Below are positions 11,846-58,714 of a stretch of DNA of 64,000 bases, in pieces. Under the pieces are notes generated by a model. That model worked only from the letters and a program-made list of their open reading frames with translations, did no database searches and had not been told where the DNA came from. Source of the stretch: Carcharhinus amblyrhynchos (taxonomy: Eukaryota); NCBI GenBank assembly GCA_965287045.1, contig OZ336883.1, positions 34,534,001 through 34,598,000 of the forward strand. The letters run 5' to 3'. Each line of letters starts with the position of its first letter. Positions within the stretch are counted from its first letter, which is position 1. The translations under genes and the position numbers were made by a program.

Positions 11846-12156
11846 TGCAGCACGGTAGCACAGTGGTTAGCACTGCTGCTTCACAGCTCCAAGGACCTGG
11901 GTTCGATTCCCGGCTTGGGTCACTGTCGGTGTGGAGTTTGCACATTCTCCTTGTGTCTGCGTGGGTTTCCTCCCACAGTCCAAAGATGTGCAGGTTAGGT
12001 TGATTGGCCATGTTAAATTGACCATAGATGCATAGGTTAGAGAGGATTAGTGGGTAAAATATGTACGGATTGGGGGTAGGGTCTGGGTGGGATTGTGGTC
12101 AGTGCAGACTCGATGGGCCGAAGAGCCTCTTTCTGTACTGTAGGGTTTCTATGATT
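11846..12156 (+). mobile_element. HE1-type SINE nested in CR1
   Basis: A box tagcacagtgg, B box ggttcgattcc, tail ctgtagggtttctatga. catcct occurs on both flanks. Confidence 0.9.
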
Positions 12157-12213
12157 CATCCTCTCAGGCAGTGAGTTATAGATTCCTACCGCCCTCTGGA
12201 TGAAAAATCTTTT

Positions 12214-13268
12214 AGAACATAGAACACTACAGCACAAACAGGCCCTTCGGCCCACGAGTTGCGCCGAACACATCAACACCCATCTATAACCCCCAATCCC
12301 ATAAAACCCCATATACTCATCCAGAAGTCTTTTAAAAGACCCCAGCGAGTTCGCCTCCACCACCACTGACGGCAGCCGATTCCATTCACTCACCACCCTC
12401 TGAGTGAAAAACTTACCCCTAACATCACTTCTGTACTTTCCTCCCCGCACCTTAAACCTGTGTCCTCTCGTAGCGACCATTTCAACCCGGGGAAATAGCC
12501 TCTGAGAATCCACCCTATCCATTCCTCTCAACGTTTTATAAACCTCTATCAGGTCACCTCTCAACCTACGTCTCTCCAGGGAAAAGAGACCCAGCTCCCT
12601 CAACCTAACTTCATAAGGCATGCCTCCCAGTCCAGGCAACATCCTTGTAAATCTCCTCTGTACCCTTTCAATAGCTTCTACGTCTTTCCTATAGTGAGGC
12701 GACCAGAACTGCGCACAGTACTCCAAATGAGGCCTGACAAGGGTCTTATAAAGTTGCAGCATTACCTCCCGACTCCTAAACTCAATCCCTCGATTTATGA
12801 AGGCCAGTACACCATACGCCTTCTTGACCACCTCTTCCACCTGCGAGGCCGATTTAAGAGTCCTGTGGACCCGGACCCCAAGATCCTTCTGCTCCTCAAC
12901 ACTACCAAGACTCCTGCCCTTGATAGTGTACTCGTTCATCCCGTTGGTTCTGCCAAAATGGACGACTACGCATTTATCCGCGTTGAAGTCCATCTGCCAC
13001 TTCTCCGCCCAGTCCTGCATCCTATTTATGTCCTGCTGCAACTTTTGCCGTCCTTCCAGACCATCCACAACACCACCGACCTTCGTGTCATCAGCGAACT
13101 TACTTACCCATCCTTCCACTTCCTCATCCAGATCATTTATGAAAATGACAAACAGCAAGGGTCCTAGAACAGATCCCTGGGGCACTCCACTGGTGACTGA
13201 CCTCCATTCAGAAAAAGACCCATCCACAACCACTCTGCCTTCTGCAGGCAAGCCAGTTCTTGATCCAC
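12214..13268 (-). mobile_element. Young 5'-truncated CR1/HER1-type LINE (RT C-terminal half and 3' end)
   Basis: Open frame with GVPQGSVLGPLLF, KFADDTK, LVRPHLEYCAQFWSPH and LFSLERRRLRGDLIEVYK. CpGs are retained. TSD-like aa(a/g)tctttt at 12205-12213 and 13269-13277. Confidence 0.92.
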
Positions 13269-13317
13269 AAGTCTTTTCCTCAAGTCCCCTCTAAGTCTCC
13301 TGCTCCTGTACCCTATA

Positions 13318-13457
13318 ATGTGGGTATGCCGGCGTTGGACTGGCGTAAACACAGTAAAAAGTCTGACAACACCAGGTTTTAGTCCAAACGATTTATTTGA
13401 TAATAATCTATTATCAAATAAATCGTTTGGACTAAAACCTGGTGTTGTCAGACTTTT
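13318..13457 (-). mobile_element. Miniature Penelope-like fold-back insertion (perfect palindrome plus tail, 14-bp TSD)
   Basis: Arms 13356-13405 and 13409-13458 are perfect 50-bp inverted repeats with a 3-nt loop. The tail 13318-13355 is the reverse complement of the 57378-57417 tail type. Perfect TSD tcctgtaccctata at 13304-13317 and 13458-13471. Confidence 0.8.
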
Positions 13458-14888
13458 TCCTGTACCCTATACCCAGTTTAGCCATAACTAAAACGCTTCA
13501 ACCCAGCAATATCCTGGTGAAGCTCCTTTGTGCCCTCTCTAGAGCAATCACATCCTTCCTTTAGTGTGGAGACCAGAACTGCACCACCTGTGACCTAACA
13601 ATATTTTATATAACTAAGTTTAAGTTTATTAGTGTCATAATTAGGCTTGCATTAACATTGCATTGAAGTTACTGTGAAAATCCAACATAATCTCCCTGCT
13701 CTTATATTTTATGCTTCAGCTAATAAAGGCAGGTTTCCTATGTGCCTTCTTAACCACCTTATCTACCTGTCCTTCTATCTTTGGACATGCGCCACAGGAT
13801 CCCTCTGGTCCTCCTTTCTTACCAGCGTCCTACTGTTCGCTGTGTATTCCCTTGCCTTGTTAATCCTCCCAAGATGCATCACCTCATACTTTTCAGGGCT
13901 AAGTTCTATTTGCCACTGTTCTGCTCATCTAACCAGCCCATCCATATCGTCCTGTAAAGTAAGGCTTTTCTCTTTGTTATTTACCACACTACCAATTTTC
14001 GTGACATCTGTGAACTTACTGATTATAGCCCCCACGTTCCCATCTAGCTCATTAATGTACACTACAAACAGCAAGGGATCCAGCACTCATTCCTGTGGTA
14101 CACCACTGGACACCAGGCTTCTAGTCACAGAAACAACCTTCAACCATCACCCTATGCTTCCTGCCACTAATTTTGGATCCAGTTTGCCAGACTTTGTTGG
14201 ATCCCACGGATTCTTACCTTTTTGACCAGTCTCCCATGCAGGACATTAGCAAAAGTCTTACTGAAGTCCAGTAGACGGCATCAACTGCACTGCCCTCATC
14301 TACACACTTCATCTGAAGATTCAATCAAATTTACTGGATGATCTCCCCCTGACAAAGTCATGCTGACTATCCTTGATTAATCCTTGTCTCTCCGAATGGA
14401 GATTAATTCTGTCCCGCAAACTTTTTTTCCAACAATTTCCCTATCGCTAGTATTAGACTCACTGACCTGTAAATACCTGGTTTTTCCTTACTTCGAATCC
14501 AGTTAGCACTTTGGGAAAGCACAACTGTTGAACAGTTCCAATTTAATTTTGAAATACTGCCTTGAAAACATTGATCTTAATTTGTGAAAGTCTTTACATG
14601 GGCCAATGGCAAAGCACTTTCTGTGCAAATTTTTAAAAATGTATTTTACTTTCCACTATTTATCTCAGGATATAATGTTGTTATGACTAAAGGGGTTTGT
14701 CAATTGCTTTCATTCCTTTGGTTACCAAAATTGTAAATTTGTTGTGAAAACTCTTTATTAAGTGATGTAATTATCATAGAATTGCAACCTTAAATCCAGC
14801 TTGTCCCCCTACAGCTCGGATTGATTTTAAACATTTGCTTAATTTTTGTACAGCGTGACTTACGTTTCTGAGCCTTTTTGCATTGTAG

Positions 14889-47711: not shown

Positions 47712-48551
47712 TTAGGATCCTACAAGAATCTCCATGATATGGTCCAGGTCACTCAAATCCACTCTGCAGATCTGAATGGCATTCACAGATGTAGAGTTGC
47801 ATAACTGAAAGGGTTTAGAAACTTCATCCACATTAGCTGGTGGTGATCTAGCAGGTGTCAATGGAAGTAAGCACAGATCTGAGTCATACATGGATGTGTC
47901 AATGTCTTCAAATATGTCATCGAAAGCAAGGTCTGTTAGGTAACTCGTTGAATTTGTGATTTCAAAAGATCCAAACACAGTTTCTGCAGGCTTAATTTCC
48001 TGCGGTCTGTCTCCCAAAGATATCTCTGTGTTTATGTCACCCTCGCCTGCAGATGTTGGACAGGGAGATGGGCTAATATCCTCCATAAAATCCAAGTCTT
48101 TGAGGATTGATGAAATGGCAGATGACATGTCATCATCTGAAACCACCACTAAAGAGTTCTCAATCTGACTCTCTGAAAAATCTGAAGAACTATTCAAATC
48201 AAGAGAGTTAGTTTGAACAGATGGTGTTCCAGTTAATTCAATACTTGCCTGAGATGCTGTGTAAGTATCTGGAATTGGACTTGTTCCATTGCAAATGTTA
48301 GATCCTTCATGGCTGCTTTCTTGTCTCATTTCTTCCTGGATCTGCCGTACAGTATTTGCAATGAGAACAGAACGATGCAGGTTTGGTTCTACCAGCATCC
48401 TACAACTTTGCAATTTGATGAGGCACATATTGAGTACTAACTGTCTCTGCAAAGTATAGGGCAGCCCTGGGTTCGAATCAAAGGCACCAGGAACACCAGC
48501 CATATTTTCTTCGTAATCACTAAGCTTGCGCTTCAGTCCTTTAGCCAACAT
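47712..48551 (-). CDS. SERTA domain-containing protein (SERTAD2-like / CDCA4 paralog, TRIP-Br/SEI family), 279 aa, single coding exon
   Basis: Intact ATG-to-TAA ORF. It has the N-terminal KGLKRK motif, the SERTA domain (YTLQRQLVLNMCLIKLQ...LVEPNLHRSVLIANTVRQIQEEM), the FEI..S.SYL.DL..DDIFEDIDTSMYD block and the family C-terminus DLSDLDHIMEILVGS. A strong splice acceptor (TTTCTTTCCTTTTTCCTAG, AG at 48557-48556) lies 4 nt upstream of the ATG. The exact paralog is not certain. Confidence 0.93.
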   Translation of the reverse strand: MLAKGLKRKLSDYEENMAGVPGAFDSNPGLPYTLQRQLVLNMCLIKLQSCRMLVEPNLHRSVLIANTVRQIQEEMRQESSHEGSNICNGTSPIPDTYTASQASIELTGTPSVQTNSLDLNSSSDFSESQIENSLVVVSDDDMSSAISSILKDLDFMEDISPSPCPTSAGEGDINTEISLGDRPQEIKPAETVFGSFEITNSTSYLTDLAFDDIFEDIDTSMYDSDLCLLPLTPARSPPANVDEVSKPFQLCNSTSVNAIQICRVDLSDLDHIMEILVGS

Positions 48552-54424: not shown

Positions 54425-54875
54425 CTTGCTCCAAAGTGCCACAGTTTTTATTTCCAAATCTTTGGAGTTAGTGTGGCAGTACATTCTGAACATTTCAAAT
54501 AAAAATGAATCAGTCCTCGGTTGGTTTTTAGAGCAGTTTGTGTGTGCAGGCTAGAATTCTCCACTTGCACTAACTGCCATGCAGCTGTCCTGCTTTTTTC
54601 AGACAGCTGACAAACAGCAACTGCACAAGCACAATGACGCAGAAGACTAAGCTGCCGTGGAAAGGAGTGGGCTTGAAAAAGTAGGTGGAGCTTTGTGGCT
54701 TGCAGTAGTGTCCATCTCCAGCTTGGTGAAACAGTCGGAGAGAACTGCTCAACAAGCAGACAGGGCCCCAACTGCGCTATTCCAGAAATGCTGACAGTGT
54801 CTCTAGCATGTCCACTAACAGCAGCTTGTTTAAGCAATACACACTGCAATCCACTTGGATACTGTATAAAGATTA
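54425..54875 (-). other. Probable 5' UTR exon of the SERTA-domain gene
   Basis: Minus-strand donor AAG|GTAAGC (GT at 54424-54423). Acceptors CTCTTTTTATTTCAG (AG at 54877-54876) or TTTCTTTGTCTCCAG (AG at 54892-54891). The interval is repeat-free and more GC-rich than its flanks. Confidence 0.55.
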
Positions 54876-55307
54876 CTGAAATAAAAAGAGCTGGAGACAA
54901 AGAAACAGGACATTTAAAAAACTTATTTCACAACTGGGCTCCCATTTAGGATGTTTCTGTTTTAGTAGAAAACATGCAAGGCAGTTCCACTATACAAAAT
55001 TCTAAAAATATTTATTTAAAGAAAGAAATCTAAGAATTGTAAAGCATTCATGGAAAAACTCTTGCTTTTGCTCTGTTTAAATAATGTACAACTCTGTTAA
55101 CAGTAAAGGTCTTTTACATTGACGAGAACACTGGGTTAAATGAGATAGCTATAGTAACCAAACAGGTGAACTGAAATCAACAAGCAGACTCAAAAACAGA
55201 TTATAGAAATGCAAAGATTCCATTATTTGTACAAAAGGTCTTCCATATGGCCAGCAGGAATACAAACTTGTCTCTGAGTGAGTCCATGTGTCTTTTTCAT
55301 GTACCAG

Positions 55308-56274: not shown

Positions 56275-57069
56275 CATTTTAATGCAATTAGATTGAGGGA
56301 ATGTTAAATGCATGGATCACTTGCCATCATAAAACCCTACCCTACTTTCATTCCATATATTTACAGTTTACTTCTTTGGTGGCAACTTTAAACATTACCC
56401 TCTAGGCATTAAGGAATGAAATATGATTTTTAATAGTTCATACAATTTAATTTTTTTAAAATTGATTAGAAGTTTACAATTAATAGGGTTCATAAAGATA
56501 TTTGGGGTGATTCTCCAGGACCACTAGCCCCAGTTGTGATTCTGATGGCCTACTGAATCGGGTGAGGGAGCCAGATCAGGATTCTTGCCGGGTGCCAAGC
56601 CCATTGAGAGTCTCCTGGCCTGTTGCGCCTGGTGAGATCAGGTTATCACCCTGATCAGAACTCATTTAAATCCATGTCACAGAGTATCACAAAATCCCTA
56701 CAGTGCAGATGGATGCCATTCAGCCCATCGAGTCTGCATCGACTCTCTGACAGAGCATCTTACCCAGGCTCAATTATAAATACTTCAGATTTTCGCAGCA
56801 TGGTTTTCTTCAGTCCACACTGCAGTTATCTAATTGATTTGTCCTGCTCTTTCTCACGCCTTAATTTTTAAGGGTTTATCAATTGCTCCCTTAGTACATT
56901 CCCCTTATTACTCTATGGAATTAATCCTAGTTTTTGCGATTGATTAAACGTGCCATCTCGACGGACATCCCACTGAGTCTGTAATTCGACATAATTTCCA
57001 TGGTTCCACCATTGTCAGAAGTCTCACAACACCAGGTTAAAGTCCAACCAGTTTATTTGATAGTAAACC

Positions 57070-57105
57070 CACAAGCTTTCAGAAACGCTGTTCCCTCGTC
57101 AGGTG
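57070..57105 (-). ncRNA. Minimal type I hammerhead ribozyme motif (mirror copy)
   Basis: The reverse complement reads CAC-CUGACGA-GGGAAC-AGC-GUUUCU-GAAA-GCU-U-GUG. Confidence 0.65.
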
Positions 57106-57289
57106 TGTGGAAGGTTCTGTTCAGAGACGGGGCATATAAGGGCATACACAGTTTACAGAATACTGATTAGAATGCGAGTCTTTGCAGCTAACCTGCTATT
57201 CAAGTTAGCTGTGAAGACTCGCATTCTAATCAGTATTCTGTAAAGCGTGTATGCCTTTATATGCCCTTCTCTGATCAGAACCTTCCACA

Positions 57290-57324
57290 CACCTGACGAG
57301 GGCACAGCGTTCTGAAAGCTTGTG
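57290..57324 (+). ncRNA. Minimal type I hammerhead ribozyme motif (PLE-type)
   Basis: CAC-CUGACGA-GGGCACAGCGUUCU-GAAA-GCU-U-GUG: core CUGAnGA and GAAA, stem II, palindromic AGCU stem III, CAC/GUG stem I. Confidence 0.65.
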
Positions 57325-57609
57325 GGTTTACTATCAAATAAACTGGTTGGACTTTAATCAGGTGTTGTGAGACTTCTTACTGTGTTTACCCCAGTCCAAC
57401 GCCAGCATCTCCACATCATGTCCACCGTTGTCAACAAACAAGCAAGTTGTAGACTACTACAGAAGGCACCAAGCGTCAGCCATATACTTTGGAGCTGGAG
57501 TCACAGGTCAGACTGAGTAGGTTTCCAGTTGTTGAAGGGCAGGCATTAGTGGGGGAGTTGGGTTTTCGCAATAAATCGAGAAGCTATATCACATAAGCCT
57601 CAGTGACTC

Positions 57610-58160
57610 TGCAACTTCAGGACCACACCTGGAATACTGCGGACAGTTTGGTTCCCAAATCTAAGGAAGGATATACTGCATTGGAGGCAGTCCAGAGAAG
57701 GTTCAGTAGGCTGTTCTGGGTACAAAAGTATTTTCTTATGAGGAGAAGTTGAGCCTGTATTTGTTGAAGTTTAGAAGAACGAGAAGCAACCTTATTGAGA
57801 TATATAGGATTCTCAAGGGTTTGACAGGGTAGATGCTGAGAGGTTGTTTCCCCTTATGGGAGAGTCTCGGACCAGAGGGCATAATCTCAGTGTAAGGGGT
57901 CACCTATTTAAAATAGAGATGAGGAGGAATTTGTTCTCTGAAGATAATGAATCTGTGGAATTCTTTACTGCAGAGGGCTATAGCGGCTGGGTCGTTAAAC
58001 ATATTCAAGGACGAGATAGGCAGATTTTTAATCCATAAGAGAATCAAGGGTTATGGGGATAAGGTGGAGTTGAGGATTATCATATCAGATCGGTCAAGAT
58101 CTCCGAGTGACGAGTAAACTCGATGGGCCAAATGTGTTACTTCTACCTCTATGTCTTATG
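57610..58160 (+). mobile_element. CR1 3' fragment
   Basis: RPHLEYCGQF, LEAVQRRF and FPLMGESRTRGHNL. Confidence 0.82.
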
Positions 58161-58714
58161 CTCATGTCTCAATCAGGTTTGAGCTTCTTGCACATGTCCT
58201 AGGCCACTCTCAGTTCCAGCAATCATCATGTTGTGCCTCATTTTACACTCTGGTCCTATTCTGTACAACAATGCAGGATCCACAAGACTGCACAATGGGT
58301 TTCATCCATTTGCCATGCACAAATACTAATTAGAATGCCTCCATTCATAAAGCAAAGGATAGGTTTAATCAAACAGCACTCCTAATAACTCAACAAGCCT
58401 TTACACCAGTCAAAATCACACACAGTCACACACAGCAAGTCTCTGACCCAGCCATAAATCTGAAGTAAATGAAGGATGAGTGGAACCTTAAGAGCTGGAG
58501 GATAATATATCCCATTACTAGGCTCCTGTAAGTTGTTAATCCTATTCACCAAACACCTGAAAAATCGTAGCATATTGTAATACTCCTCACACCATCTTCT
58601 CTGATCTATGAATTTCTGCAATAGTAGCTATAGCCCTTGAATAAAGATCCCCTCCAGTCAGCTCTCTGCCCATAGCTGCATTTCAAGTTACTAAGCAAGG
58701 GAAAAGGACTCCTT

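Follow-up and report, generated by a model that had tools for sequence, protein, structure and literature searches.

A 64,000-nucleotide stretch of the Carcharhinus amblyrhynchos genome (contig OZ336883.1, positions 34,534,001 to 34,598,000; hereafter the window) contains a 403-bp insertion that folds back on itself and carries a hammerhead ribozyme motif on each strand. This locus raises the question whether such a hairpin is a mobile unit in its own right, a regulatory RNA or ribozyme for a neighboring SERTA-domain gene, or the ordinary product of the integration of a Penelope-like element (PLE). We put at about 85% the probability that it is a 5′-truncated insertion of a Neptune-type PLE, in which the 3′ end of the element is present twice within a target site duplication (TSD), once in sense with the tail and once inverted without it, with the hairpin likely built during insertion. 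The features in question are the following, with positions given in the window.

57005-57017, + strand: left TSD, 13 bp, matching 57421-57433 at 12/13 positions
57018-57203, - strand: inverted, tail-less copy of the PLE 3′ end, corresponding to about -44 to -230 from the 3′ end of the parent, as mapped on L062/L063
57070-57105, - strand: minimal type I hammerhead of the inverted arm, core intact, G10.1·U11.1
57193-57203: hairpin loop of 11 nt, which is the last 11 nt of the inverted copy and can close further to 5 nt
57204-57420, + strand: 5′-truncated copy of the PLE 3′ end (pLTR) in sense orientation, covering about -217/-220 up to the 3′ end
57290-57324, + strand: minimal type I hammerhead of the tailed arm, core intact, G10.1·U11.1, with one stem II mismatch and a 1-nt loss
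57377-57420, + strand: unpaired PLE "tail", 44 nt
57421-57433, + strand: right TSD, 13 bp
13306-13471 (insert 13318-13459), - strand: another fold-back of this family, with an insert of 142 bp and a TSD of 12 bp without mismatch
47712-48551, - strand: coding exon of the SERTA-domain gene (a neighbor, not part of the element), Pfam SERTA 6.9e-18

Layout of the insertion

The insert (57018-57420, 403 bp) lies between two copies of the sequence TCCACC[A/G]TTGTCA, which differ by one mismatch. None of 20,000 random 13-mers of the window has such a partner at that spacing. As assessed by BLAST, the two arms (57018-57192 and 57204-57376, ∼175-178 bp) are 91% identical with 2 one-base gaps, and the fold energy of the insert is -313 kcal/mol (z = -40.5 relative to 100 shuffled sequences). 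Coordinates and arm alignment thus bear out the 403-bp insertion, 13-bp TSD, inverted arms, and 11-nt loop of the original prediction, and the unpaired tail that it described is present, although at 44 nt and not 43 bp. Loose ends of other copies cluster at 57417-57420 in four public runs.

In EN+ PLE, complex insertions have been described that consist of an inverted 5′-truncated copy, a 30-40-bp tail on one end, and a TSD (PMC8557442). All of these are found at the window copy, where the inverted 5′-truncated copy is at the 5′ end. The arrangement, with head-to-head inverted pLTR, a one-sided tail, and a TSD around the whole, therefore resembles both these insertions and Pen2/Pen2a of Adineta (PMC3846280), whereas the TSD is longer (13 bp, compared with 8-10 bp in Adineta) and the tail is 44 nt.

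A second fold-back of the same family in the window, at 13318-13459, is too short to contain a hammerhead. Its arms share variants that are absent from the copy at 57018-57420, and it adjoins a truncated LINE RT fragment (12037-13290) at the 5′ end of the latter.

The parent element and its family

The insertion belongs to an abundant family. A search of the 2.9-Gb genome with the insert returned 5,112 candidates, the best 40 of which were scored, and exact matches to a 35-nt pattern from the tail number 3,534 (0 for the control), which sets a lower bound on the family copy number. Longer copies, of which L062 and L063 served as natural references for mapping arm ends, run 5′ into coding sequence. 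One of them, L067, is a 3.9-kb insertion with a 12-bp TSD and the same layout as the window copy. Its inverted arm (∼815 bp) starts at -44, like the left arm in the window, and its 3.1-kb tailed arm contains RT (Pfam RVT_1 7.8e-12), thumb, a cysteine (CxxC) linker, and a GIY-YIG-type frame, followed by a pLTR that is 80-86% identical to that of the window copy. This continuity between the pLTR and RT and GIY-YIG frames upholds the proposed derivation from a PLE, and L067, together with the tail-pattern matches, supplies the ORF-bearing partner and the copy number that had been called for. The RT/endonuclease frames seen in longer copies are all broken, and the sense copy in the window (57204-57420) has no ORF because both halves have been cut down to about 200 bp.

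The class of the parent can be proposed from its coding region. The linker preceding the GIY-YIG region reads CCNLCKTC in L062 and CHSNLCKTC in P0005/P0001. Of 52 candidate homologues of the endonuclease piece, 21 have E ≤ 1e-10, and the named ones are shark proteins, which display a DKG motif, RT, CX4CX2C, and VYLI...WYIG; P0005 has DKG, RT, CHSNLCKTC, and VYLI...WYIG. The Pfam GIY-YIG match to the endonuclease region is below threshold (E 0.15), the EN fragments have no match in Pfam, and the RT fragment has no meaningful match in the PDB. Atlas features lead to GIY-YIG clusters with scores of 0.95-0.96, 18-22% of whose members are annotated, and it is from these clusters and the motif that the endonuclease appears to be of the GIY-YIG type. 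The parent copies and the shark homologues share with Neptune PLE the succession of RT, CX4CX2C, and GIY-YIG (PMC8557442). A CX2-5CxxC linker marks both Neptune and Nematis PLE (PMC8557442), and going by this linker the parent is probably Neptune-type.

Six annotated shark isoforms (P0009, P0011, P0013, P0014, P0015, and P0020, including septin 5a, XRCC5, cytochrome P450, PPP1R12A-like, and others) contain a piece of the PLE endonuclease frame, and these pieces are either exonised fragments or annotation artefacts. In a limited literature collection, a search for Penelope/Neptune among shark-genome transposable elements returned no paper, and a search for Penelope-like, hammerhead, and shark returned one review; supplements may bear on published shark hammerheads. 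Repbase/Dfam, we presume, very likely contain this shark PLE family.

Each insertion most likely forms its own fold-back

The original prediction viewed the insertion as a non-autonomous PLE derivative. In its strong form, this would mean that the 403-bp hairpin is transcribed and retrotransposed as a unit by PLE protein. About 40 top matches of similar size (the best 40 of 5,112) speak for such a unit, as does L011, a copy with the same three mapped ends as the window copy, and pLTR-bounded cargo is mobilisable by PLE proteins (PMC3846280). Family copies sampled in different ways give a different picture. In the first 30 tail matches on contig 1, taken in chromosome order and reduced to 27 independent copies by dropping L081-L083 (duplicates of L080), an inverted arm is present in 25/27 (24 mapped, plus L084). 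These copies form a continuous size series, with tailed arms of 50-215 nt and inverted arms reaching -57 to -364, and the fold point differs for nearly each of them. Even among 20 mapped look-alikes of the window copy (L006/L007, with a tail on both ends, were left out), the tailed arms start, counting from the 3′ end, at -201 to -278 and the inverted ones stop at -175 to -245, and the hairpin center varies from copy to copy.

An arm tree of 19 look-alike 400-bp fold-backs (162 columns, with low signal; L006/L007 and L028 excluded) points the same way. The distance between arms is 0.067 within a copy compared with 0.114 between copies, and between copies it is equal whichever arms are compared (tailed-tailed 0.117, inverted-inverted 0.111, tailed-inverted 0.114). 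Arms of the same copy are sisters in 7/19 look-alikes, five of them strongly supported (the window copy at 97/83), and are not resolved as pairs in the other 12; no clade of left arms or of right arms is seen among the 19 copies. Because fold points differ, and because arms pair within a copy and never by side, a new fold-back most likely arises with every insertion, whereas a hairpin copied as a unit would show the reverse pattern of arm distances.

We therefore consider a self-copying fold-back exceedingly unlikely and already largely refuted; the PLE origin of the derivative stands, the copied unit is not supported. The top matches were picked for likeness from 5,112 candidates, and the agreement of L011 with the window copy, from which it differs in subfamily variants and TSD, is expected given thousands of copies, selection for likeness, and one short overlap. 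The only identical fold-backs, L080-L083 (G000:C1:5.34-5.52 Mb), also have identical flanks and TSD and go back to a stretch of at least 1.5 kb that was duplicated segmentally or in tandem. Not every member of the family is folded back: in a third, older-looking set, found with the last 91 bases of the window copy, only 13/29 other copies have an inverted self-match within 1.5 kb. One copy, L006 (G000:C36:14681402-14681834), is a fold-back with a tail on both ends instead of the usual one-sided tail.

Two other classes of element were considered. A MITE-like fold-back element has one fixed structure and fold point across copies, and mapped ends and arm tree show varying ones. Non-LTR retrozymes are likewise short, non-coding, hammerhead-bearing, and derived from PLE pLTR, and are reported in one cartilaginous fish in the text covered (bioRxiv 10.64898/2026.07.22.740005), a 2026 preprint that derives animal retrozymes from pLTR. 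However, they are head-to-tail tandems, whereas the window copy was inserted once, in head-to-head form and with a TSD; the unit is not directly repeated in 56500-58000, and thus no head-to-tail tandem of hammerhead-bearing units is found there.

How the insertion may have been made

The simplest reading of this geometry, and one that we regard as reasonably probable, is priming from both cut ends and joining of two cDNAs. In brief, (i) the GIY-YIG endonuclease would cut both target strands ∼13 bp apart, (ii) each cut end would prime reverse transcription on element RNA, one at the tail end and the other ∼35-45 nt inside, and (iii) both cDNA copies would stop after ∼200 nt and join at a 1-5-nt overlap. 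The hammerheads would be passengers from the pLTR. In vitro, purified PLE protein indeed nicks and extends both strands, with two start sites separated by the tail (PMC11167929). The proposal resembles L1 twin priming in that, in both cases, each end of the target is inferred to act as a primer and the two resulting cDNAs to be joined. In the limited literature collection, the two papers returned on Penelope-like elements and twin priming do not, by their titles, deal with PLE mechanism. In the 5′ inversions produced by L1 twin priming, the inverted part is a further upstream, non-overlapping stretch. In contrast, the inverted part of the window copy repeats the 3′ end, which generates a palindrome.

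The alternative is that the palindrome arose by self-priming (fold-back) of one template strand, after which endonuclease or repair trimmed the tail from one arm. Self-priming has been proposed for the palindromes of Adineta PLE, on an antisense template (PMC3846280), and the tail has been ascribed to EN-mediated resolution (PMC8557442). It would also account for the variants that are common to both arms of a copy and for the short overlaps at joints, which are seen at 9 of the 24 mapped chromosome-order copies and measure 1-5 nt in the window copy. The position of the arm ends bears on both readings. In the window copy, the tail-less arm extends ∼10-13 nt further 5′ than the tailed arm, because the loop is parent sequence in antisense, and the tail is on the tailed arm only; neither arm therefore contains the other. 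Among the 24 mapped copies the tail-less arm is further 5′ in 15, so that in these, too, neither arm includes all of the other; the tailed arm is further 5′ in 6, and the two are about equal in 3. That either arm can be longer counts against self-priming, although self-priming followed by later trimming of either arm also fits unequal arms. The joints, which besides the overlaps comprise 13 with filler and 2 that are flush, count against it as well, with the proviso that filler may be overcounted where references fit poorly. Finally, the inverted arms start between -25 and -57, with 18/24 in the narrow band from -35 to -43, which is where the second RT start site observed in vitro would place them. 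Arm geometry thus favors two-ended priming, and we see self-priming as a possible but rather unlikely origin.

Six copies (L087, L100, L101, L102, L022, and L023) continue beyond the usual 3′ end with an identical short extension (GACT), which suggests a further RT start site 4-5 nt downstream. With odds that we judge to be only slightly better than even, a more general proposal can be made, namely that the inverted duplicate is the default integration product. A dimeric PLE enzyme would prime from both strands at two tail-separated start sites, every insertion of hammerhead length would silence its hammerhead by its own antisense, and the thousands of short palindromes would be a genome-scale readout of start sites, stop sites, and end-joining.

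The hammerhead motifs

A single motif of the form CAC-CUGACGA-stem II-GAAA-GCU-U-GUG had been predicted on each strand, and the two were found at 57290-57324 (+) and 57105-57070 (-). Both have CUGANGA and GAAA cores, a UH cleavage site, and a palindromic helix III, which identifies them as minimal type I hammerheads of the PLE kind, as had been proposed. They share with the minimal hammerheads (min-HHR) of metazoan PLE pLTR, for which opposite-strand pairs 100-700 bp apart were already reported, the type I core, an extra nucleotide after A9, and a palindromic AGCU for helix III (PMC4209133). On the other hand, stem II (4 bp) and stem I (3 bp) are shorter than in Schistosoma, and both motifs have G10.1·U11.1 instead of the conserved G-C (PMC4209133).

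A comparison of 92 family motifs, whose rows are related, with both arms of a copy counted and with duplicate-strand loci and L061-L076 left out, indicates that the hammerheads are real family features. Stem II pairs 10.2-10.4 are Watson-Crick in 82, 80, and 78 of 92 motifs, compared with 71, 52, and 50 in shuffles, a level that 0/5,000 reach. As judged from these sequences, stem II is kept by compensatory change, with variants such as GGAA/TTCC, GGGG/CCCC, GAGG/CCTC, and GGAG/CTCC preserving the pairing. The G10.1-C11.1 pair is G-C in 65/92 and G·U, a CpG-type change, in 21/92, so the G-U pair noted earlier at the base of stem II is a genuine departure from the commonest state of the family. 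Hammerheads decay in genomic copies: the core is intact in 42/92, and core plus G10.1-C11.1 in 26/92.

A working ribozyme within the hairpin, as originally envisaged, finds no support in the folding. As the arms are head-to-head, each hammerhead is transcribed after its own antisense in either direction. The core bases of both motifs are predicted to be fully paired (P(unpaired) < 0.003), and opening to the ribozyme fold would cost 71 (+) and 65 (-) kcal/mol; the same holds for a transcript that stops at the motif. Both hammerheads are therefore predicted to be inactive, and likely idle, because of the duplex with the other arm, the need of a dimer for helix III, and the loss of G10.1-C11.1. 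If transcription began within the loop, the resulting RNA would have an exposed hammerhead. Published min-HHR do not cleave as monomers and are weakly active when dimeric (PMC4209133), and the Anolis min-HHR needs protein (PMC11167929). Rfam covariance models give no hammerhead at the window locus, only sub-threshold microRNA-hairpin matches, which is uninformative because they also miss 10/10 other family loci chosen for well-kept cores.

In two copies, L010 and L021 (central 400 bp), the arms differ at only 1/157 and 2/162 columns (median 8%, P about 2e-4 each) yet have in common 8 and 13 differences from the family majority, some of which break the hammerhead core. This reflects either gene conversion between the arms or recent insertion from sources whose hammerhead was already dead.

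The neighboring gene and the insertion site

The SERTA gene that had been placed next to the element is real, as assessed by its Pfam match, but its coding exon, which we take to resemble CDCA4, lies at a distance of about 8.5 kb. The ATG of this exon is immediately preceded by a splice acceptor. Upstream of the exon, the window contains a single strong donor-like site on the minus strand, CAAG|GTAAG at 54425, ∼2.6 kb from the element, and the element would thus be upstream of the gene or in an intron. The unique stretch that ends at this site (54426-54950, - strand) is a candidate non-coding first exon. From 44 kb in the window to 20 kb beyond its end, no clear CpG island is found. The public runs listed for the locus include no RNA run, which bears neither way on expression.

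In three other organisms, contigs run from unique flanking sequence into the ends of the element for 20-28 nt (56902-57042 and 57393-57704), which hints weakly that the insertion may predate the split from those organisms. Over 56300-58300 in four public runs, the matches listed include no empty orthologous site and no joint across the insert, and no contig bridges by 31 letters; summed contig depth over this interval is not a copy number.

Could the copy now act as a regulatory hairpin for the SERTA gene, whether as an editing substrate, a small-RNA source, or a ribozyme? The duplex is very stable, the element lies ∼2.6 kb beyond the donor-like site described above, and the contig overlaps, below the 31-letter bridging rule, hint at the insert in related organisms. 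We nevertheless find this very unlikely. The arms have diverged at 8/161 columns, which is within the range of other copies (median 8%) and does not suggest that pairing has been maintained, the genome has thousands of equivalent hairpins, and the ribozyme is predicted to be masked by folding.

Implications

The window copy is an ordinary truncated insertion of a very common PLE, and both its layout and its opposite-strand hammerheads match what is already published (PMC8557442, PMC3846280, PMC4209133). As one of thousands it matters little by itself, with one caution, that such hairpins score as microRNA-like or ribozyme-like in RNA scans without being functional. The family is useful as data on PLE integration. 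In the text covered, how PLE acquire their tail and inverted ends is still described as undefined (PMC8557442), and the two start sites on both strands shown in vitro are not tied to inverted insertions (PMC11167929). With the arm geometry measured here, two-ended priming can be tested across the genome, and the remaining value of the finding lies in the junctions of this family as a test of how PLE integrate.
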